Shown in pieces: positions 6,723-58,592 of a DNA stretch of 64,000 nt; position 1 is the first letter of the stretch; every line of letters starts with the position of its first letter. Origin of the DNA: an uncultured Methanosarcinales archaeon (lineage in GTDB: Archaea > Nanobdellota > Nanobdellia > Woesearchaeales > CAXGTL01); NCBI GenBank assembly GCA_964535955.1, contig CAZHVK010000001.1:115542-179541 (forward strand), given 5' to 3'. Made by a program: the position numbers and the translations under genes. Under the pieces are notes generated by a model. It ran no database searches. It had not been told where the DNA came from and saw nothing but the letters and a program-made list of their open reading frames with translations.

Positions 6723-8159
6723 ATGAGAAAGAATAAAATGAATGAAATAATTGACCAAAATCCAAAAATAGGAGAAAGAGAACAGGAAAATAAAATAAGT
6801 GTTAAAAAAGATTTATTTGACAGGATAAAGCAAATGAAAGGGGCTATCCATTTAGTTTTAATAGCTACAAAGCCTGACATAATTAAACAAGCTCCATTGA
6901 TTCTGGAATTGAGAAAAAGGAATGAAAATATTGTAATAGTCCATACTGGGCAGCATTATGATTGGAACTTATCCAAAGGAATGGAACAAGAATTTGATAT
7001 TCACCCTGATGTAAATCTAAATGTTCATGGAAAGACATTATATGAACAACAGTCAAAAATCATAGGCAGGTTTGGAAAAATAGTGGATGAAATTAAGAAG
7101 ATTAATAAAAAAATTGTTCCTTATACATATAGTGATACAACTAGTGCTGTTGCTGGTGGTGTTGCTAGTTTTGCAAATAGGATTGCAGTTGCTCATGTTG
7201 AAGCAGGACTTAGGACAATGAGTCCACCAAGAGAAATCCTTACAAGTTTATTATATAATAGGAATATTGTTGATTATTATGAAGAATTAAAAAATCCTGA
7301 AGGATGGAAAAAAGGAAGTTATGAACCTTATCCTGAACAGTTTGACAGCCGAGCTTCTGCACCATCAGCTGGAGTGCATCTTGCTCCTACTGAGCTTAAT
7401 AAAAATAATTTGATAAATGAGGGATATGATAAAAAAAGAATATTTGTTGTTGGAAATCCTGTTTCAGATGCAATTGGATTTGCAAAAGAAAGAATAGATC
7501 AAAGTCAGATATTCAAGGAATATCCTATATTAAAGCAAGGTAATTTTATAAGATTCTGTGTTCATAGAAGAGAAAATGTTTCATCTAAGCATAGGTTTAA
7601 GTCAATAATACTAGCAATGATTGAATTGATTAAAGAAGGTAAAAATATTCTTTTTATCTCATTAGGTGCAACTGAAAAAGCATTAAAAGCATTTGAATTA
7701 AAAGAAGAGATTGTGGAATTGAACAAAGAATATGAGAATTTTATTTATTCACCTGTATGGCCCAGTTATATTGATGTGATTGCTGCTATGCAAAAATGTA
7801 GTGTAATTGCAACTGATTCTGGGAGTATACAAGAGGAAGCTAACATACTTGGAATTCCAGGAGTCATTTTAAGGTTTAATTCTGATAGACCTGAGACTGT
7901 TTTTGCAGGATCAAATATAATTGCACCTCCTATGAAAAAAGAGATTGTCTACAGAATAATAAAAGAAATTCATGAAAATAGGGAACTTAACAATAAAATG
8001 GCAAATAGTCCTAAACTTTATGGTCAGGATGTTGGTAAAAAAATAGTTGATGTTGTTAATGGTATAATGAGTGAAGGGCCATTGTTTGAACTACTTGAAC
8101 ATGAAAGATTAGGTTTTTCTAAATTTGATATGTGGGAGAAAGGTGGGATTGATTGGTGA
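6723..8159 (+). CDS. UDP-N-acetylglucosamine 2-epimerase (non-hydrolysing, WecB/MnaA family) with insertions
   Basis: Hallmark HVEAGLRT motif plus ATDSGSIQEEANILGIPGVILRFNSDRPE. The protein is about 100 aa longer than usual because of inserts. Confidence 0.8.
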   Translation: MRKNKMNEIIDQNPKIGEREQENKISVKKDLFDRIKQMKGAIHLVLIATKPDIIKQAPLILELRKRNENIVIVHTGQHYDWNLSKGMEQEFDIHPDVNLNVHGKTLYEQQSKIIGRFGKIVDEIKKINKKIVPYTYSDTTSAVAGGVASFANRIAVAHVEAGLRTMSPPREILTSLLYNRNIVDYYEELKNPEGWKKGSYEPYPEQFDSRASAPSAGVHLAPTELNKNNLINEGYDKKRIFVVGNPVSDAIGFAKERIDQSQIFKEYPILKQGNFIRFCVHRRENVSSKHRFKSIILAMIELIKEGKNILFISLGATEKALKAFELKEEIVELNKEYENFIYSPVWPSYIDVIAAMQKCSVIATDSGSIQEEANILGIPGVILRFNSDRPETVFAGSNIIAPPMKKEIVYRIIKEIHENRELNNKMANSPKLYGQDVGKKIVDVVNGIMSEGPLFELLEHERLGFSKFDMWEKGGIDW

Positions 8160-9882
8160 ACACTACAAAATTGTGTTCTTTGTTTTGATATATTGTAAAG
8201 AAACCTATACTGTTAAAGTCTGATTTTGTAATTGTATTAAGATATATAAACTTCTTTGTTTTATTATTGAATATGTTTTGGTTTATGATTATATAATTTA
8301 CATTATATTTTTTTATGATGTTATTGATTGTTTGTAAGTCGTTATCAGGCAGCATTACTGCTTTTCTAGAAGTATAAAAATTAACTTGAGCAGGAAGAGA
8401 TGTCATGATAATATCATCTTGATTTGTATTTTGTAATACCCAATCTGCTTCAGGAGAATAATTTTGGTATGATGGAAGAGTTGATAATCTATAATTCATA
8501 AATGTTATGAAATAAAGACTAAATACAATAATTATAATGATTGTGATTATTAGAATGATATATGAAGATTTGTTAATCAATGTTTTGATTGTGTTTACTA
8601 TTTTTGATTTTGATTTTTTGCAATATCTCAATAAGGTATAAATTATTAGAGGAGTAAGTAAAATCAGGATTGGAGTAAAATATCTTGGTTCATAATGAGA
8701 TCTTATTGTGAAAAAAATTGATAATAAGTAGAATGTGAGGATTGAAAAGTCAAGATATATTCTTATTCCTAATTTAAAGGTTTTTCTTAATCTTAACAAG
8801 ATTAATGATGATATGAATAAAAATAATGTTATAAGATTTGTAAAAAAAAGATAAATTTGGCGTAATGTGAATATAATTATATTATTCCATGAACAAGAAA
8901 GATTTGTATGAGGTAAATATCTGATTATATGTTCTTGTAAAGGAGTTCTAAATCCTGAACATTTATAGATTAAATCAGGAAGTCCTGAATAAGGGGATGA
9001 AACAAAAGTATTGAATAAAAGAGAGTTTCTTAGAAAAAAAGGAAGCAAGATAAGAAAACATGTTAGTAATGTTAATGTTAAAGATATTATGAATCTGTGT
9101 CTGTTTGTTGTTTTGTTTGTTCTTTTGTTTGTTGTTTTGTTTGTTGTTTTGTTTGTTGTTTTGTTTGTTGTTTTGTTTGTTGTTTTTATTCTAAACTTTG
9201 ATAAAGTAAATAAATACATAATAGAAAGACATAGCATTGCAAAGATTGCAAAGATACCTGCATATTTTTGTAAAAAAGTAAATGCCAATATAATTCCTAA
9301 TATGAATGGTATTGTTGTTTTGGATGATGTTGTGCCAATAGTTGTGACAAGTTTTACAAAAAAATAAACACTTAATAATAATAAAATGTAAAACAAAGGT
9401 TCTGTCATTGCGTATAGAAAGTAATAACTAAATAAAAAATAAGGATTAAAGATTATAATTAAGCTTGAGAAAAATGCAATTGTTTCACCAAAAATGTCTT
9501 TTGTAATGAAATAAAAGAGGATTGCAAATATGAGAAATAAAATAATATTAATAATTTTTGTAGAAAAAACACTTATTCCAAAGATTAAATAGCTTAATGA
9601 GATTAATATTGGGAAAAAGATAACTCTTACATCTTCTGGGTGAGTTATGGTGTCATAATCTTCATAGTAATATAAAATAAAGTCATTAGTAATGCCTTTT
9701 CCTGATAATATGTTTTTTGCTGTTGCTGAAAAAATTCCTGGATCGCTTCCAATGCCATTATTGTTTGAAATTATGTTTAAATAAATTGAGAATAAGATTA
9801 GGATAATCAGCAAATATGATAAAAATAATTTGGTATTCTTTTTGTGCTTTTTTCTTTTTTTGTTGTTTTTCAGAGATTTCAT
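8119..9882 (-). CDS. Polytopic membrane protein, putative GT-C-fold (ArnT/PMT-like) glycosyltransferase; carries a (KTTNK)n low-complexity loop
   Basis: More than 10 predicted TM helices in the N-terminal two thirds and a soluble C-terminal domain. A KTTNKTTNKTTNKTTNKTTNKRTNKTTN loop is present. Position within the agl cluster is suggestive, but the family assignment is tentative. Confidence 0.4.
   Translation of the reverse strand: MKSLKNNKKRKKHKKNTKLFLSYLLIILILFSIYLNIISNNNGIGSDPGIFSATAKNILSGKGITNDFILYYYEDYDTITHPEDVRVIFFPILISLSYLIFGISVFSTKIINIILFLIFAILFYFITKDIFGETIAFFSSLIIIFNPYFLFSYYFLYAMTEPLFYILLLLSVYFFVKLVTTIGTTSSKTTIPFILGIILAFTFLQKYAGIFAIFAMLCLSIMYLFTLSKFRIKTTNKTTNKTTNKTTNKTTNKRTNKTTNRHRFIISLTLTLLTCFLILLPFFLRNSLLFNTFVSSPYSGLPDLIYKCSGFRTPLQEHIIRYLPHTNLSCSWNNIIIFTLRQIYLFFTNLITLFLFISSLILLRLRKTFKLGIRIYLDFSILTFYLLSIFFTIRSHYEPRYFTPILILLTPLIIYTLLRYCKKSKSKIVNTIKTLINKSSYIILIITIIIIIVFSLYFITFMNYRLSTLPSYQNYSPEADWVLQNTNQDDIIMTSLPAQVNFYTSRKAVMLPDNDLQTINNIIKKYNVNYIIINQNIFNNKTKKFIYLNTITKSDFNSIGFFTIYQNKEHNFVVFTNQSHLSPTYQI
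9107..9190. repeat. 15-nt tandem repeat (about 5.5 copies of tttgtttgttgtttt) inside a CDS, encoding (KTTNK)n on the minus strand
   Basis: The repeat is directly visible in the sequence. Confidence 0.9.
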
Positions 9883-16744: not shown

Positions 16745-17305
16745 TCAACTCATTACACCTAAAAATTGATAAACAAATCTTTCTCTTAGTACTGTTAAAT
16801 CATAATTGTTTTGACTTTGAATAATATAACACATATTCTGTTTAAATATCTTTGATTCATTTCCACTTCTGATTAAAATAACTTCTGCAGAAGCGTCATC
16901 ACAATTAACCAAAGGAAGTTCATTATCTGGACAAGCCTTTTCTTTTATGCATGAAAATTGTGGCCGAATATTGTTTTGGTAAAACAAAGAAGCTAAATAG
17001 TTCATTGTAAAGCTTTTGTCAAGTTCTTTGTCCTCTTGATCATAAGCAAGATATATTTTTTGTCCTGTTATTGAAATAGGAGTTGAGTTCATCATTTCAA
17101 TATCTTTTGGCAGATAGTTAAATACCATCTTTTGATTGTTTATTGTCACATCCCAACCATTTTGTGAAGGGATGAATTTAAAACCATTATATTCTTCTTC
17201 ATTAGTTCCTGATGCTTTCCACATTCCAAAAACACTAAGTACCATAAGAATTAGAATAAATAATGCAACATTCTCTTTTCTTAAGATTAATCTTTTTTTT
17301 CCCAA
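16745..17305 (-). CDS. Hypothetical membrane-anchored protein encoded immediately upstream of aglB and probably co-transcribed with it
   Basis: N-terminal TM or signal anchor (LFILILMVLSVFGMW). No recognisable domain. Confidence 0.4.
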   Translation of the reverse strand: MGKKRLILRKENVALFILILMVLSVFGMWKASGTNEEEYNGFKFIPSQNGWDVTINNQKMVFNYLPKDIEMMNSTPISITGQKIYLAYDQEDKELDKSFTMNYLASLFYQNNIRPQFSCIKEKACPDNELPLVNCDDASAEVILIRSGNESKIFKQNMCYIIQSQNNYDLTVLRERFVYQFLGVMS

Positions 17306-17378
17306 ATTCTTTCCACCTAATAAAGTATTTGTTAAGTGTTGGAAGTATGATTTCTTTATAAAGTTTACTTTTTACAGT

Positions 17379-17487
17379 ATGTGCATGGTTCGTTCGTACT
17401 TTCAATGTGATACTATCTGCAATAGAAAGTCCTGACAGTCTTACGAAATAGCAGGTACTCTCTAGTCTTAACAGACACCATGCACAT
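17379..17487. repeat. Intergenic inverted-repeat-closed structured element, copy A (putative ncRNA or MITE-like)
   Basis: An 11-bp perfect terminal inverted repeat, ATGTGCATGGT ... ACCATGCACAT. Internal conserved motifs TCGTTCGTACTTTCAATGTG and GTCTTAACAGAC. The element is flanked on both sides by the direct repeat ACTTTTTACA. Confidence 0.6.
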
Positions 17488-17492
17488 ACTTT

Positions 17493-18743
17493 TTACAATA
17501 TGTTTTTTATAAAATATAAATACTTTGGTTCTTTTAATAGTATTTTTATCAGCAGAGTTGTTATGTAATCTCTGTCATATTTACTTAATAGTTTCTTTAT
17601 CTTAGGCTGATTTGTTAGTTTGAATAAATAATCATAATCCTTGTTTGTGAATTTGTCAAGTGTTTTTCTTATGATAAGGTGAAGTAATAAATCTTTGTTT
17701 AATAGCTGATTGCATAATTTTAGATAGGATTTATTATTTTTGATTGATTTTGCTAAAGCTTGTGCTGCTAATAATGACTGAATTATACCACCTGCTGTGG
17801 TTGCTTTGATTTGGGTTGCTGCATCTCCTATAAGATATAATTGTAGATTTCTCTTTTTCCTGTAAATCAGGGCTCTTGGATTGTATATAGGTATAAGCCC
17901 TGCTTGGTAGTCTATGATTATACTATTTTGTTTGTTTTGTTTGTTTTGTTTGTTTTGTTTGTTGTTTATTAATCTTTTTTTGTTATTGATTTTGATATTG
18001 TGTGTTTTCTCAATTTTATTGATAAAATCATTGAAGACTTTTTTTTGATTCTTATAACAAGCAATTCCAACTCTTGCAATTGTGTCTGATTCTGGGACAA
18101 ACCATGCAAAACCTTTTTTAAGAGGGTAAAATTCAAGAGTATTCTTATTTTTTATATTTATTTTTATCCTAACTTGGATACCTATGAGGAATTTAGGATA
18201 TAATTTATGATTAATTGCCTTTGAAACTATACTTTGTGGACCGTCTGCTCCAATGAGATGATTGGTTGTGCATAATAGATTTTTGTTCTTGGTCTTTAGA
18301 ACAATTGTTTTATGATGTGTATTTTGTAGACGATGAAACCCTTGAAAATTGTGATTTAAGTAAATTTTTACTCCCAAATCTTGTGCTTTTTTAGATAAAA
18401 ATTGGTCGAATTTAGCACGATCCAGGACCAAATTTGGTTGATTTAGTTTAATTGTGATATATTGAGTGTTTGGTGAAACAATCTTTGCAAATTTAATCTT
18501 ATTTTTAATTAAGTTTTTTGGTAATTTTATAATTTTATTAATAGAATTCGTCACCAAACCAGTACATTTGACAGGAATTCCAATATTATTGTGTTCTTCA
18601 AATACTGAAATCCTGTGATTTGTATTTTTTGCTAGTAAATATGCAGTATACAATCCAGCAGGTCCTGCTCCAATAATTGCTACATCTGTTTTTAATGTTT
18701 TAGATATTCTTGTTCTTGGTTTTTTTAATGGTTTTTTATACAT
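17493..18743 (-). CDS. Geranylgeranyl reductase family FAD-dependent oxidoreductase (archaeal lipid saturation) with an (NKQ)n insertion
   Basis: FAD-binding motif VAIIGAGPAGLYTAYLLAK and the GGR-family fold. The NKQNKQNKQNKQN insert is encoded by a 9-nt microsatellite. Confidence 0.8.
   Translation of the reverse strand: MYKKPLKKPRTRISKTLKTDVAIIGAGPAGLYTAYLLAKNTNHRISVFEEHNNIGIPVKCTGLVTNSINKIIKLPKNLIKNKIKFAKIVSPNTQYITIKLNQPNLVLDRAKFDQFLSKKAQDLGVKIYLNHNFQGFHRLQNTHHKTIVLKTKNKNLLCTTNHLIGADGPQSIVSKAINHKLYPKFLIGIQVRIKINIKNKNTLEFYPLKKGFAWFVPESDTIARVGIACYKNQKKVFNDFINKIEKTHNIKINNKKRLINNKQNKQNKQNKQNSIIIDYQAGLIPIYNPRALIYRKKRNLQLYLIGDAATQIKATTAGGIIQSLLAAQALAKSIKNNKSYLKLCNQLLNKDLLLHLIIRKTLDKFTNKDYDYLFKLTNQPKIKKLLSKYDRDYITTLLIKILLKEPKYLYFIKNIL
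17928..17966. repeat. 9-nt tandem repeat (tttgttttg) x about 4 encoding (NKQ)n within the GGR gene
   Basis: The repeat is directly visible in the sequence. Confidence 0.85.
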
Positions 18744-30956: not shown

Positions 30957-31206
30957 TATAATTATTTATTATTTATTCAGTCTTTAGACTAAACCTAAAT
31001 ATTGTCTAACACCTATTTTGTAGAATACTAATATTACAATATCATATGGGAATATGTACTAGTTTATAAATATTTCTATATTCACTACTGGCCAATAAAG
31101 ATAAAAATCTTGAAATATAGGCAAATTTATAAATATAACATACACATACTATATAGTATAGGTATTAATTAGATGTTTGGAATAAATATATGTAGGGGTT
31201 GAGTTA

Positions 31207-31343
31207 AAGGAGGAAGACAAAAATGATGCCAGGAATGAATATAAACAAACTTTTACAAAGTTTGATCAAAGGTAGTGAGGCATTACGCTTTGCTTCAGCC
31301 ACACAAGGAGGAAGACAAAAATGATGCCAGGAATGAATATAAA
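31207..31343. repeat. Direct duplication of a 39-nt translation-initiation segment (AAGGAGGAAGACAAAAATGATGCCAGGAATGAATATAAA) at 31207-31245 and 31305-31343
   Basis: The two 39-nt copies are exactly identical and lie 98 nt apart. Confidence 0.9.
31223..31324 (+). CDS. Putative 33-codon upstream ORF (MMPGMNINKLLQSLIKGSEALRFASATQGGRQK). It shares its first 7 codons with NAC, and its TGA stop overlaps the NAC ATG (ATGA)
   Basis: Created by the duplicated SD-plus-start segment. It has the same strong SD (AAGGAGG) as the downstream gene. Confidence 0.3.
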   Translation: MMPGMNINKLLQSLIKGSEALRFASATQGGRQK

Positions 31344-33224: not shown

Positions 33225-33315
33225 AAGGAGTAGTGAACTCACAAACTTCTGCCTAACTAACAAGAGTGGGTGGAGGGGAAGTGGGTTTGGTGGGTTATAA
33301 TAGTAACAATCACAT

Positions 33316-33482
33316 GGCGGCAATGGTGTAGCCTGGGACCTTGCCTTTGACCTTATCTAAGGTATTGGTGGGTAACAGCACAGGGGACTGTGGACTATCA
33401 TTGGATAGATATCCCCTAGGCCGAGTTCAAAATAAATAATCAGATAATGAAGATTAATATGAAAGTCTCGGTTGCCGCCCCA
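33316..33482 (+). tRNA. tRNA-His (anticodon GTG) carrying three putative introns (D-loop about 33339-33377; canonical 37/38 at 33394-33410; T-loop 59/60 at about 33432-33465). G-1 and CCA are genomically encoded
   Basis: Spliced exons give a 74-nt cloverleaf. Acceptor is GCGGCAA/TTGCCGC with the His-specific G-1 (33316) opposite discriminator C73. U8 is present. D-stem is GTGT/GCAC with loop AGCCTGGGA. Anticodon stem is GGGGA/TCCCC with loop CTGTGGA (U33, GUG, G37). T-stem is CCGAG/CTCGG with the canonical T-loop TTCAAAT. The 3' end is CCA followed by a T-run. A TTATAATA TATA-like box lies upstream. Intron boundaries are approximate. Confidence 0.7.
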
Positions 33483-33502
33483 TTTTTTAAAATTTAGTTT
33501 TT

Positions 33503-43809: not shown

Positions 43810-43836
43810 GTTAATTTCACCTTTTATATTTTATTA

Positions 43837-44000
43837 CATGTGTATGGTTCGTTCAAACTTTCCATGTGTCATATCATTGCTTGGAAGGCCTTGTAGTTTT
43901 ACAATTTGTGTGGGTTTTCACTTGTCAGAAATGGGACATTTCTGATCATGCTCATGAATCTACGATTCATGACAGGCCTTAACAGGCACCATACACATGT
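43837..44000. repeat. Intergenic inverted-repeat-closed structured element, copy B
   Basis: A 13-bp perfect terminal inverted repeat, ACATGTGTATGGT ... ACCATACACATGT. Internal motifs are TCGTTCAAACTTTCCATGTG and GGCCTTAACAGGC. Three internal perfect hairpins are present. Both sides carry the flank TTTTATTAC. Confidence 0.6.
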
Positions 44001-44133
44001 TTTATTACAGTAGAATCATATTCATACTGTATTTATTATCAGCCAATACAGTGTTTGTCTTAAGTCCACGTATGTGCTTTACTTAAGATAGGCTAATGTA
44101 TGTTGGTAGAGGGGTTTGGTTTATAAATGTAAC

Positions 44134-45255: not shown

Positions 45256-45371
45256 TAATAAAACCCTTTCGTTCGCATGCTCAATGCAATTATTATGATA
45301 ATTTGAGCAACTGTTATATTCTTATGAATTGAACTCATGCTCACTGGCCTTAACAAGCAAGGGTTTTATTA
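45256..45371. repeat. Intergenic inverted-repeat-closed structured element, copy D
   Basis: A 13-bp perfect terminal inverted repeat, TAATAAAACCCTT ... AAGGGTTTTATTA. Internal motifs are TTCGTTCGCATGCTCAATG and GGCCTTAACAAGC. It lies directly upstream of the orc1/cdc6 start. Confidence 0.55.
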
Positions 45372-45374
45372 GAA

Positions 45375-45692
45375 TTATTGCACTCTTCTACCACAAAATG
45401 GACAGAAGTGATAGTTCATAGGCATGTGAACTTTGCAGTCATAGCAATATACTGTTTTTTTTCTTGCTAAATGTGCTTTGTGTGGTTTATGTGGTTTTTT
45501 GGATTTTTCTTTTTTGTGTCTTCTGGATTCTTTCATGCCTGTTATAAACCATTTTGCAATCCCATAAACAACAAAAATAATCCCTAAATAGAAAAATGCA
45601 GAATAATTAAATTGATCTGTTGTAATAAAGTGAGAAATAATTGTAACAATTGCTCCTATTATTATGAATGCAAGTGGGTGGATTGAGACCAT
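45375..45692 (-). CDS. Small membrane protein with a C-terminal zinc ribbon (CxxC...CxxC)
   Basis: Two TM helices followed by CYDCKVHMPMNYHFCPFCGRRV. Confidence 0.5.
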   Translation of the reverse strand: MVSIHPLAFIIIGAIVTIISHFITTDQFNYSAFFYLGIIFVVYGIAKWFITGMKESRRHKKEKSKKPHKPHKAHLARKKTVYCYDCKVHMPMNYHFCPFCGRRVQ

Positions 45693-45715
45693 ATATTTTT
45701 TCCTCTTTTTTTTAA

Positions 45716-45759
45716 ACGCACAGACTTCCGAAGAAGTCTATGCGCATCACCTTTTTTTT
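45716..45759. promoter_or_regulatory. GC-rich imperfect hairpin (12-bp stem, CGAA loop) followed by a 9-T run, about 25 nt upstream of the Zn-ribbon gene start
   Basis: ACGCACAGACTTC-CGAA-GAAGTCTATGCGC followed by TTTTTTTTT. This is hairpin-plus-T-run terminator-like geometry on the plus strand. Confidence 0.4.
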
Positions 45760-45800
45760 TAAAAAATTACCTCGAGGTAAGTGTGAATTAATAATCTTTT

Positions 45801-45923: not shown

Positions 45924-47207
45924 TTATTTTTTCTTAATAACTTTTTTTCCATTCATATAATTCCACAAAGCTTTTGGAATCTTTATTGAGCCATCTTTTT
46001 GCTGATTGTTTTCAAGTATTGAGACTAAAGCCCTGGATGTTGCAATCACTGTATTGTTCAGTGTGTGTGCATAATATTTATTGTCTTTGTCTTGGATCTT
46101 TATGTTTAATCTTCGTGCTTGTGATTCTTCCATGTTTGTTAATGAACCTGCTTCTATGTATTTCTCTTGTCTTGGTGACCAAACTTCTAAATCGCATGAT
46201 TTTGCTTTTAAATCTGCTAAATCACCTGAACACATTTCTAATATTCTGAATGGAATTTTGAATTCTTTGTAAAGGTCTATAACAAAGTTAAGCATTTTAT
46301 CATACCATTTATAAGAATCTTCTGGTTCGCAAATAACAATCATCTCCTGCTTATTGAATTGGTGTGTTCTAAATATTCCTTTTTCATCAATACCATGTGA
46401 TCCTATCTCTTTTCTAAAACACATAGAATAAGCTGTTTGTTTTACTGGAAGATCTTTTTTATCTAAAGTTTTGTTAATGAATTGTCCTATAAGCGGATGT
46501 TCTGATGTTGCTATCATGAACAAGTCTTCACCTTCAATCTTATAAGACATTTGTTCTATCTCTGCATGAGAATATACACCTGTTAAAATGCATTCTCTTA
46601 TCATTAATGGAGGCTCCACATATAAAAAATCATGTTTAAGCATAAAGTCTCTTGCAAAATTAACTAATGCCATGTTTAATAATGCAATATCACCTTTCAT
46701 ATAATAGAAACCTTTGCCAGATGTTTCTGCTGATGTGTCAAAGTCAAGCATGCCTAATTGTTCTCCTAATTCTACATGGCTCTTTACTTGGAATGAAAAT
46801 TTCTTTGGCTCCAGAAACCTTTGAATTTCTACATTCTGAGAATCATCTTTGCCAATTGGAACACTTTTATGTATTATGTTTGGTATTTTATACATAAATT
46901 CTTTGATTTGTGTCCTTAGTTCTTTTTCTTTGAATTCTATTTTTTCTATTTCTATTGGAATTTGTTTTGCTTTTTTTTTTAATTTTTGAAATTCTGATTC
47001 TTTTTTGTCTTTTTTTGCTTTATTGATAAGTTCTGAGACTTTATTTCTCTCATGCCTTAATTTGTCTAATTTTTGTTTTAAAGAACGCCATTCTTTGTCT
47101 AATTTTTGTACTTTGTCAACAAAAGGAAGTCTATCATCTTGAAACTTTTTCTTAATATTGTCTTTAACTGTTTTAGGAGTATTTCTTATAAGATTGATAT
47201 CAATCAT
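45924..47207 (-). CDS. serS: Seryl-tRNA synthetase (class II)
   Basis: N-terminal coiled-coil arm and class II motifs (FRKEIGSHGIDEKGIFRTHQFNKQE; GSLTNMEESQARRL). Confidence 0.9.
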   Translation of the reverse strand: MIDINLIRNTPKTVKDNIKKKFQDDRLPFVDKVQKLDKEWRSLKQKLDKLRHERNKVSELINKAKKDKKESEFQKLKKKAKQIPIEIEKIEFKEKELRTQIKEFMYKIPNIIHKSVPIGKDDSQNVEIQRFLEPKKFSFQVKSHVELGEQLGMLDFDTSAETSGKGFYYMKGDIALLNMALVNFARDFMLKHDFLYVEPPLMIRECILTGVYSHAEIEQMSYKIEGEDLFMIATSEHPLIGQFINKTLDKKDLPVKQTAYSMCFRKEIGSHGIDEKGIFRTHQFNKQEMIVICEPEDSYKWYDKMLNFVIDLYKEFKIPFRILEMCSGDLADLKAKSCDLEVWSPRQEKYIEAGSLTNMEESQARRLNIKIQDKDNKYYAHTLNNTVIATSRALVSILENNQQKDGSIKIPKALWNYMNGKKVIKKK

Positions 47208-57983: not shown

Positions 57984-58036
57984 TTTGTCAAAAACTTTGT
58001 TTTTGATCATGATCAGAAATCCTTGATTTCTGACAA
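57984..58036. promoter_or_regulatory. Conserved palindromic upstream element, copy 2: TTTGTCAAAAAC-N8-TTTTTGATCATGATCAGAAA ... TGACAAA, about 44 nt upstream of dnaG
   Basis: The same 12-bp palindrome TGATCATGATCA with 32/34 conserved flanks. The outer arms TTTGTCA/TGACAAA are also symmetric. Confidence 0.5.
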
Positions 58037-58592
58037 ATTTGATAGAAAAAGCTCTCTAACTTGATTCCAAATAATGTGTTTTGTGAATAAGTAAACATGA
58101 TTTTGCCTTTTCTATCTATTTAAGAACAAGTTTTAAACCGTAATTTTAACTAATTTCCAACTCTTTTTTTGCTTTTAAATGATTAAATGAATATGATTTG
58201 CGGTTTTTTTGACTTGTTCTATTGTTTTTAAGCCTATTTTGACTTTCTTTGTTCTTTTTAAACTTAATTTATGATTTAATAAGCATAAAAGGTTTGTTGC
58301 CTGAAGCACTAACTCCCAGGGTTCATTGCTCGCCTTATGCGTTAGCTCCATTGAGCACTCTCGTGTCAGGCTGTATTATGCAAGAGTATCTTTAAATCAC
58401 TGTTGTTCTTTGTTGAACAGCTCATAAAAGGACCCATTTGCATAAATTGTGCGATGATATATGGTAGGTAGAGGTGGTTAATAAATGTTTGGTTTTTTGT
58501 GGTTTTTGTCATCACTTGAAGGTAATGACTTATAGAAAGATTTATATAGTGGTGTGTGTTGCTTTTTACTATATAATTATATAGTGAGGTAA

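Follow-up and report, generated by a model that had tools for sequence, protein, structure and literature searches.

Flanking direct repeats at two copies of a small structured repeat family in a marine woesearchaeal genome

Do the short direct repeats that bracket two copies of a small intergenic element record the insertion of that element, and if so, to what class of mobile DNA might it belong? The question arises from a stretch of 64,000 nucleotides (hereafter the window) from an uncultured archaeon of the Woesearchaeales (assembly GCA_964535955.1, contig CAZHVK010000001.1, positions 115,542 to 179,541, forward strand), which is densely coding, with a GC content of 28% and a range of 25-32%. 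DPANN archaea have tiny genomes, and little is known of their mobile DNA and non-coding RNA. [quoted passage not shown] The analysis reported here favours, as a reading that is evenly poised, the view that A and B belong to an old, non-autonomous MITE-like family under selection on a folded strand, and that these two copies carry target-site duplications. The features on which the question turns are the following.

17376 to 17490, minus strand: element A, 115 nt, covariance-model score 105.5 bits, E 6e-20
17366 to 17376, no strand assigned: left direct repeat of A, TACTTTTTACA, the downstream copy on the gene-sense strand, adjoining promoter block AAACTTTATAAAG
17487 to 17497, no strand assigned: right direct repeat of A, TACTTTTTACA, holding the TAA stop (17495-17493, minus) of gene 17493-18743
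43836 to 44000, minus strand: element B, 165 nt, of which 114 nt are core and 51 nt a nested double hairpin, covariance-model score 93.3 bits
43829 to 43838, no strand assigned: left direct repeat of B, TTTTATTACA, the downstream copy on the gene-sense strand, directly before the ribosome-binding site of ribosomal protein S2
44000 to 44009, no strand assigned: right direct repeat of B, TTTTATTACA, gene-sense TGTAATAAAA, which is the end of the S2 leader

The direct repeats proved slightly longer than first noted, ACTTTTTACA at A extending to the 11-bp TACTTTTTACA (17366-17376 and 17487-17497) and TTTTATTAC at B to the 10-bp TTTTATTACA (43829-43838 and 44000-44009). Each touches the closing stem of its own element, with which it overlaps by 1-3 nt, and when read in gene sense the A repeat (TGTAAAAAGTA) and the B repeat (TGTAATAAAA) have a TGTAA core in common. 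Copies C and D, as already described, lack any clear repeat. Identical sequence to that of the window recurs in independent assemblies of several marine metagenomes, including a 182-kb scaffold, and the repeats are therefore not an assembly artefact; the window accordingly represents a genuine population genome of a DPANN archaeon from the sea.

The simplest dismissal of such repeats, and the one that the preliminary description had itself named, is that they are chance matches in A/T-rich intergenic DNA. Flanks that are low-complexity and A/T-rich, together with six of eight copies without a repeat, lend this some support. Against it stands a null model of 20,000 random position pairs, 100-180 nt apart in the same window and subject to identical adjacency rules, in which repeats of 10 bp or more arose with a probability of 0.00025 when all positions were counted and of 0.0013 when flanks had to reach 80% A+T. 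For two of them to occur among eight full-length elements the probability is about 5e-5, so that the A and B repeats lie beyond chance; the TGTAA core found in both is a further point against coincidence, which is considered extremely improbable.

Comparison was then possible with five syntenic genomes, recognised through their S2 and reductase homologues, whose proteins are 73-88% identical to those of the window in a roughly star-like pattern. At site A, the relative L160 has a 79-nt spacer in which the element is absent, and in which a single partial and diverged counterpart of the repeat (TAAGT vs TAAAAAGT; the L160 sequence, present once, is ...TTTAAGTAAACTTTATAAAC) lies beside the conserved promoter block; in the window, the downstream repeat copy of A likewise abuts the conserved TATA region of the next gene. 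At site B the element is absent from L157 and L164 and represented in L154 by a 21-nt stub of two stem arms; sequence related to the right repeat of B (CTACTGTAA..) is present in all five genomes, and the left (downstream) copy is missing in L154 and L165. Site C is empty in L154, holds a small double-hairpin element instead in L157, and is occupied in L164 by an element with a similar stem and an interior of a different type. Site D is occupied in L164 and unoccupied in L154, L157 and L165. Each of the four window sites is thus without the element in at least one syntenic relative, which is the filled/empty comparison customary for MITEs and the check that the preliminary description had proposed, although three of the sites show stem remnants. 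Both flank repeats without the element, which it had regarded as the mark of chance repeats, were seen in no relative. A flank of 10-11 bp duplicated beyond an insert of 111-161 bp is most simply explained by repair of a staggered cut at insertion, and the likeness of the A and B targets, TGTAA(A/T)AAA, suggests a site preference.

The elements at B, C and D are older than the divergence of these genomes. Copies were located by a motif-plus-stem search and a covariance model (R1), which together yielded nine: A, B, C and D in the window; E and a partial copy F, both on the same scaffold and in the 10 kb that lie left of the window; two in L164 (L164a and L164b); and one in L165 (L165B). A to F amount to at least six copies in approximately 75 kb. 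Element length is 109-116 nt (~113 nt), B and L165B being counted after removal of a nested insert. The two remaining copies in the window are as follows.

45256 to 45371, minus strand: element D, 116 nt, closing stem P1 TAATAAAACCCTT/AAGGGTTTTATTA, no flanking repeat, 107.4 bits
45801 to 45913, minus strand: element C, 113 nt, closing stem P1 ATGAAACTCCT/AGGAGTTTCAT, no flanking repeat, 91.6 bits

What unites these copies is a feature overlooked in the preliminary description, namely a fold of five helices, conserved and with G.A mismatches that never vary, together with a bias in strand with respect to the genes. In element A its parts are disposed thus.

17490 to 17477, minus strand: 5' arm of closing stem P1
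17476 to 17465, minus strand: P4
17464 to 17455, minus strand: motif m1, UAGAGAGUAC
17454 to 17431, minus strand: P3 region
17430 to 17398, minus strand: P2 hairpin
17397 to 17390, minus strand: motif m2, ACGAACGA
17389 to 17376, minus strand: 3' arm of P1

The closing stem P1 comprises 11-14 bp in every full copy, with 97-100% of its cells paired (AGTATGTGCATGGT/ACCATGCACATACT at 17376-17389 and 17477-17490 in A; ACATGTGTATGGT/ACCATACACATGT at 43837-43849 and 43988-44000 in B). P4 is a short hairpin (GCCU-GUUA-AGGC), P3 another with a GUAA-type tetraloop, and P2 a hairpin with an A/U-rich loop of 17-19 nt, while P5 is a helix in which the invariant motifs NAGYGAR and GARCGA pair with each other, tandem G.A mismatches lying at its centre; the GA dinucleotides of both motifs show no variation across copies. 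RNAalifold recorded compensatory changes at 18 of 25 pairs. With the structure proposed here, 95.7% of cells were paired in seven sequences and 95.4% in eight, with both-side changes at 19 and 20 of 27 pairs, respectively; none of 500 shuffles matched these paired and covariation values, and slid controls were only 25-47% paired. The fold z-score of A was -3.9 on the plus and -4.7 on the minus strand. Selection on the folded strand is indicated by stems that change through compensatory substitution and junction nucleotides that remain invariant. As modelled, the conserved purine-purine mismatches make sense on the gene-sense strand only.

The preliminary description had also held that the termini were not conserved between copies. 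This was not borne out for the pair in question: A and B share ATGTG[C/T]ATGG ... CCAT[G/A]CACAT, in which the single difference is compensated, and different stems are confined to C, D and E.

On the favoured reading of an old MITE-like family, an element would enter A/T-rich sequence of the TGTAA(A/T)AAA type, typically just after a stop codon, by way of a staggered cut, the repair of which would duplicate 8-11 bp of target; the duplication would have been kept at A and B and lost from older copies. Once inserted, the element would be co-transcribed with its neighbours, and individual copies could be kept, deleted, inverted across their stem arms or recombined with other copies. Selection would act on the folded strand, with maintenance, and perhaps mobilisation, dependent on a folded single strand. 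Two members would either retain their target duplications or have renewed them.

A number of observations weigh against this account. Pairwise identity among copies is 44-75%, unlike a recently active MITE family, and for that reason no recent burst is indicated. A long repeat (11 bp at A, 10 bp at B) accompanies only two of the eight full copies: that of L165B is at most 5 bp, and none is present at C, D, E, L164a or L164b. At site B, L165 carries a full element with the same nested insert, inverted and without the long repeat, and the L154 stub also lacks the downstream repeat, so that the repeat at B was not simply inherited from a first insertion. Pieces of the stem 5' arm persist at three unoccupied sites (L154 at B and C; L157 at D), and because of such remnants some absences, at the least, reflect deletion and not a site that was never occupied. 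For diverged copies to have perfect repeats around them, they must have moved recently by cut-and-paste or the flanks must be under constraint. The closing-stem sequence differs wholly between subfamilies with its complementarity kept, which a sequence-specific transposase would not tolerate; and among approximately 56 open reading frames (ORFs) in the window, Pfam revealed no transposase, integrase or reverse transcriptase. Finally, minimum free energies favour neither strand, and G.U pairs against A.C mismatches stand at ~6 to 4, without strand discrimination; since neither measure discriminates, assignment of the strand rests on the mismatches and on gene orientation.

Two claims of the preliminary description consequently stand in part. 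That the repeats are target-site duplications is supported by the single related copy found in relatives beside conserved neighbouring sequence at both sites, and is qualified by their restriction to two of eight full copies. That the elements are mobile and MITE-like agrees with the unoccupied sites and with a nested element, and is tempered by the stem remnants at several unoccupied sites and by the divergence of the copies.

The genomic setting of the copies bears directly on a different explanation. Eight of nine copies are in gene-sense orientation with respect to both neighbouring genes, seven of nine begin 0-20 nt past the upstream stop codon and ahead of the next promoter or ribosome-binding site, and all are intergenic save for a 1-nt overlap of L164b with a stop codon. 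Thus, A starts 2 nt past the stop of a geranylgeranyl-reductase-like gene (17493-18743, minus) and sits upstream of the conserved TATA box of gene 16745-17305 (minus); D begins 3 nt past the stop of gene 45375-45692 (minus) and C 10 nt past that of the seryl-tRNA synthetase (SerRS) gene (45924-47207, minus); and B, like its L165 counterpart, lies between the strongly conserved S2 leader and the S2 ribosome-binding site. Other genes of the window include those for an archaeal-type ribosomal protein S2, Orc1/Cdc6, AglB/STT3 and RadA. Among named organisms, Candidatus Woesearchaeota supply the closest homologues of this S2.

Such positions, just past stop codons and in gene sense, would be expected of resident cis-acting mRNA structures, that is, stabilisers of 3'-untranslated or intercistronic regions, or processing or protein-binding sites, which are ancient and no longer, or were never, mobile. 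We regard this as a real if minor possibility. It accords with occupation of the same three sites (B, C and D) in genomes whose proteins are 73-88% identical, with strong covariation and invariant junction nucleotides, with the age of the copies, and with stubs at 'empty' sites, which imply that absences are losses. The A and B repeats would in that case, with the same modest likelihood, be local secondary events or be kept by their overlap with a stop codon, a B recognition element (BRE)/TATA region or the S2 leader, and both repeat copies do overlap functional sequence. Yet a family with several copies, at genes that are unrelated, needs some means of spread, and the flanking genes are functionally incoherent; two independent flank duplications of 10-11 bp would be difficult to produce by anything other than an insertion-type event; some genomes have lost the family and have nothing in its place; and one copy (L165B) is antisense.

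The leader beside B is itself of note. At window positions 44003-44100 (minus), the S2 5' leader (...ACTGTATTGGCTGATAATAAATACAGTATGAATAT.ATTCTACTGTAA) is near-invariant in five genomes whose proteins are 73-88% identical, its counterparts lying at L154:9860-9960, in L157, at L164:9880-9985 and at L165:1330-1425. It holds a hairpin, ACUGUAUU...AAUACAGU, and is a candidate ribosomal-protein leader or small RNA.

How widely the family is distributed was assessed by several routes. The covariance model detected no copy in approximately 60 kb of three other relatives, nor in one more distant relative. A scan of a genome collection with TTCGNTCNNACTTTCNATGTG returned 53 matches, nearly all random, the exception being a fragment in one Woesearchaeota metagenome-assembled genome (MAG; L038), and the same scan of a metagenome collection returned 85 matches, with the same fragment only (L084). 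This A-like fragment (L038:6667-6697, equivalent to L084:13058-13088) comprises the P2 3' arm, GAGAACGA and stem arm ACCATGCACAT, the 5' two-thirds being missing; it lies directly after a stop codon, and its host is a Tara Oceans Woesearchaeota MAG. Scans of viral contigs with two patterns revealed no family member, look-ups for P0001 and P0122 led to contigs without the relevant spacer and to no further copies, and the literature on MITEs, ribozymes and repeats of DPANN archaea and Woesearchaeota was not found to describe the family. It is so far confined to a narrow clade of marine Woesearchaeota.

The L038 fragment, being the 3' part only, on the sense strand and directly after a stop codon, is among the observations that bear on a further alternative: a new catalytic or ligand- or protein-binding RNA, such as a self-cleaving ribozyme acting as punctuation in polycistronic transcripts, spreading by retro-insertion, a process whose expected products are A/T-rich duplications that vary, along with copies truncated at the 5' end. 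In keeping with this proposal are an architecture in which stems vary freely around a conserved junction core, with tandem G.A pairs, a GNRA-type loop and two three-way junctions; repeats of variable or no length; and an element in the more distant Woesearchaeote L319 which on one strand ends in GGGTTTTTAAGA followed by its repeat, like a terminated transcript. To be set against these are the failure of every Rfam family, ribozyme or otherwise, to match even at E<=10, the lack of a reverse transcriptase in the window, a truncated copy that is single, and a cleavage site that cannot be named; spread through an RNA intermediate is accordingly held to be unlikely. The Rfam 15 search of the whole window gave no match at the gathering score, with the threshold relaxed to E<=10 the neighbourhoods of A, C, D, L164a and L164b gave noise matches only, and ARAGORN found no match in the window.

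In another explanation, a folded single strand of DNA would be moved by an HUH (Y1) transposase, as are elements derived from IS200/IS605 or REP/REPIN sequences with RAYT. This would explain recognition of structure instead of sequence, the strand bias and the presence of TTAC near the ends, and it draws on three observations: all six copies of this genome lie on one DNA strand; structure is kept while sequence varies; and, on the plus strand, A and B have TTAC at the left flank, and A, B and C have it at the right end or just past it. Against this, A and B have duplications of 10-11 bp, and elements of that kind make none at their target; subterminal hairpins would be expected of them where a long closing stem is found here; L165B lies on the opposite strand relative to its neighbours; and no TnpA or RAYT gene is present in the window. 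Movement by an HUH enzyme is on balance very unlikely.

Several established classes of element were also considered and rejected. A riboswitch or gene-specific leader is out because the neighbouring genes are unalike and, in relatives, the element is missing upstream of the same genes. On inspection, the hammerhead, a three-way junction with CUGANGA ... GAAA ... UH in canonical cyclic order, is discounted by GA motifs that pair together in one continuous helix (P5) instead of flanking separate stems, by an unfit motif order and by the lack of an Rfam match, and the K-turn and C/D box were similarly dismissed on inspection of their motifs. Integron attC sites have R''/R' core sites (RYYYAAC / GTTRRRY) at both ends and occur in cassette arrays; here, the ends are stems of the ATG.../...CAT type, CTTAAC/GTTAAG forms an internal hairpin loop, and the neighbours are housekeeping genes (S2, Cdc6, SerRS). 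Origin recognition box (ORB) elements of archaeal origins consist of contiguous dyads, which form inverted pairs about an A/T-rich unwinding element next to orc1/cdc6, and were considered because B, C and D surround cdc6; the present elements have one orientation, their dyad halves are 17-19 nt apart and covary, and they are absent in relatives with the same cdc6 locus. Plus-strand small RNA genes fail as a general account, in that the TATA-like boxes of A, B and C are, on inspection, wrongly spaced from the stem, and D alone would fit. The idea, derived from the stem-like remnants, that the closing stem is copied from the target at each insertion is excluded for A and B because similar stems lie inside duplications at unrelated sites.

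Insertion of small structured DNA is not peculiar to this family. A second set, the double-hairpin (DH) mini-elements of approximately 55 nt, has a closing stem TGTCA/TGACA, a variable hairpin 1, TCATG, and a conserved hairpin 2 (UCAGAAAU...AUUUCUGA). Two are found in the window.

43925 to 43975, minus strand: DH element nested in B between P4 and m1, CTGTCATGAAT...CCCATTTCTGA
57985 to 58040, plus strand: free-standing DH element, TTTGTCA-hairpin1-TCATG-hairpin2-TGACAAA

Alignment showed the DH element to be an insertion in B relative to A, C, D and E; the same insertion is present in L165B. Further copies are located at L157:8213-8273, at L160:11890-11960 and inside L165:1433-1599, and DH elements occupy sites that are empty in the window, and vice versa. 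In L319, whose S2 is 71% identical, two unrelated stem-closed elements have perfect 11-bp direct repeats (L319:9705-9839 and L319:12219-12402). One repeat, ATTTTTGTAAT, contains TGTAAT and surrounds a 113-nt GC-rich fold upstream of S2; the other, CGCTGAAATTC, surrounds a 165-nt rod-like hairpin. Neither element matched Rfam or the R1 covariance model. Taken with the mini-element nested in B, the L319 elements suggest that insertion of small structured DNA with duplications of ~10-11 bp is recurrent in this group.

The same evidence admits a more ambitious, and in our estimation fairly unlikely, proposal that the 113-nt fold is a new functional RNA class which also behaves as mobile DNA in DPANN archaea. 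Its predicted architecture would, with equally limited confidence, comprise two stacked three-way junctions with invariant tandem G.A pairs and a GNRA-type loop. Such a module could be self-cleaving or protein-recruiting, punctuating or stabilising transcripts after stop codons, and could have spread through recognition of its structure.

Whichever reading prevails, small structured repeats are present even in the tiny genomes of DPANN archaea, where they undergo gain, loss, inversion and nesting, and the patterns of substitution in the present elements indicate that selection maintains them for a specific fold on the strand with mRNA sense. A fold that is biochemically active, in cleavage, protein binding or 3'-end protection, would represent a new RNA class and an archaeal equivalent of the ERIC, Correia and BOX elements; if the family is purely selfish, it must be mobilised by machinery that reads structure, given that its terminal sequences lack conservation. 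With the covariance model and coordinates, both the functional-RNA and the selfish reading can be tested on existing marine metagenomes and metatranscriptomes.

Other features of the window were recorded in passing. The leader of a gene for a 105-aa protein (window 45693-45760, minus) has a conserved AAAAAAAAAGGTGAT followed by a UUCG-capped hairpin, with counterparts at L154:8340-8414, L157:8275-8345 and L164:3960-4030 and compensatory stem changes in four genomes. A GC-rich segment at 33310-33487 (plus) with tRNA-like ends, starting GCGGCAATGGTGTAGCCTGG and ending GGCCGAGTTCAAA, 34 nt, then TCTCGGTTGCCGCCCCA, looks like a tRNA gene with several introns, and had no ARAGORN or Rfam match. Positions 58290-58375, in a 600-nt intergenic region, are GC-rich (52%) and probably structured, with no Rfam match at E<=1. 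At 31196-31330 there are two copies, ~98 nt from each other, of the ribosome-binding site and start of an NAC-like gene (ggaggaagacaaaaatgatgccaggaatgaata), so that the gene start is locally duplicated. Lastly, a 12-nt microsatellite, TGTTTGTTGTTT, is repeated seven times at 9102-9186 within ORF 8119-9882 (minus); it is longer in a scaffold copy (L167:18916-19146) with a run of N inside, and is consequently either length-variable or hard to assemble.

Among known systems, bacterial MITEs are characterised as A+T-rich elements of less than 200 bp, with inverted repeats at their termini and duplications of the target site (PMC2229807; PMC3049150). The present family has the size (the limit applied here being about 200-300 bp), the lack of coding capacity and the terminal inverted repeats of that class, and resembles prokaryotic MITEs such as Correia/NEMIS of Neisseria, RUP of S. 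pneumoniae and the SM elements of Sulfolobus in being non-coding, under 200 bp and set in A+T-rich surroundings, in terminal inverted repeats that pair as a stem, in flank duplication (at two copies), and in its intergenic location, presence/absence pattern and nesting. It differs in that its copies are 44-75% identical, whereas MITEs have many closely similar copies; in subfamily termini that are wholly different yet perfectly complementary; in an interior that is a conserved multi-helix fold with invariant non-Watson-Crick positions; and in long duplications at two of eight copies, with no partner insertion sequence or transposase found in the window.

Small self-cleaving ribozymes found in repeats (hammerhead, twister, hairpin; retrozymes) are likewise multi-copy, ~50-150 nt in length and associated with mobile DNA, and have a junction core with covarying stems; the present family, known from its sequence and fold, gave no covariance-model match to any of them. 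REP/REPIN-RAYT and IS200/IS605-derived elements are similar as structured intergenic repeats, often past stop codons and with a strand bias, and are read as folded single strands. They have no target duplication, two subterminal hairpins and a linked Y1 gene, in contrast to the 10-11-bp duplications, the closing stem and the window without Y1 described here; REPs carry a conserved GTAG/CGTC tag (PMC3733652).

Closer parallels are provided by two bacterial groups. The YPAL/RU-2 elements of Yersinia have target duplications of variable length (3-26 bp), termini without a TA motif, and empty and filled sites (PMC2229807), in all of which the present family is alike; they are unlike it in being bacterial, 168 bp long and not A+T-rich, with internal inverted repeats and no conserved junction core described. 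ERIC elements act on mRNA in an orientation-dependent manner, according to a summary of earlier work (De Gregorio 2005, summarised in PMC2229807). As ~120-nt imperfect palindromes in transcribed intergenic regions, where transcription takes in their neighbours as well, the ERIC/IRU elements of enterobacteria compare well with the present family, for which co-transcription is probable, and their orientation-dependent effects on mRNA have a counterpart in its strong sense-orientation bias; as distinct from it, they are bacterial, have no sequence similarity to it, and consist of a simple long stem-loop of well-conserved sequence with TA termini. By this comparison, the best analogues of the woesearchaeal family are the bacterial MITE-like repeats that act at the RNA level, namely ERIC, Correia and BOX, together with YPAL in respect of its variable duplications.

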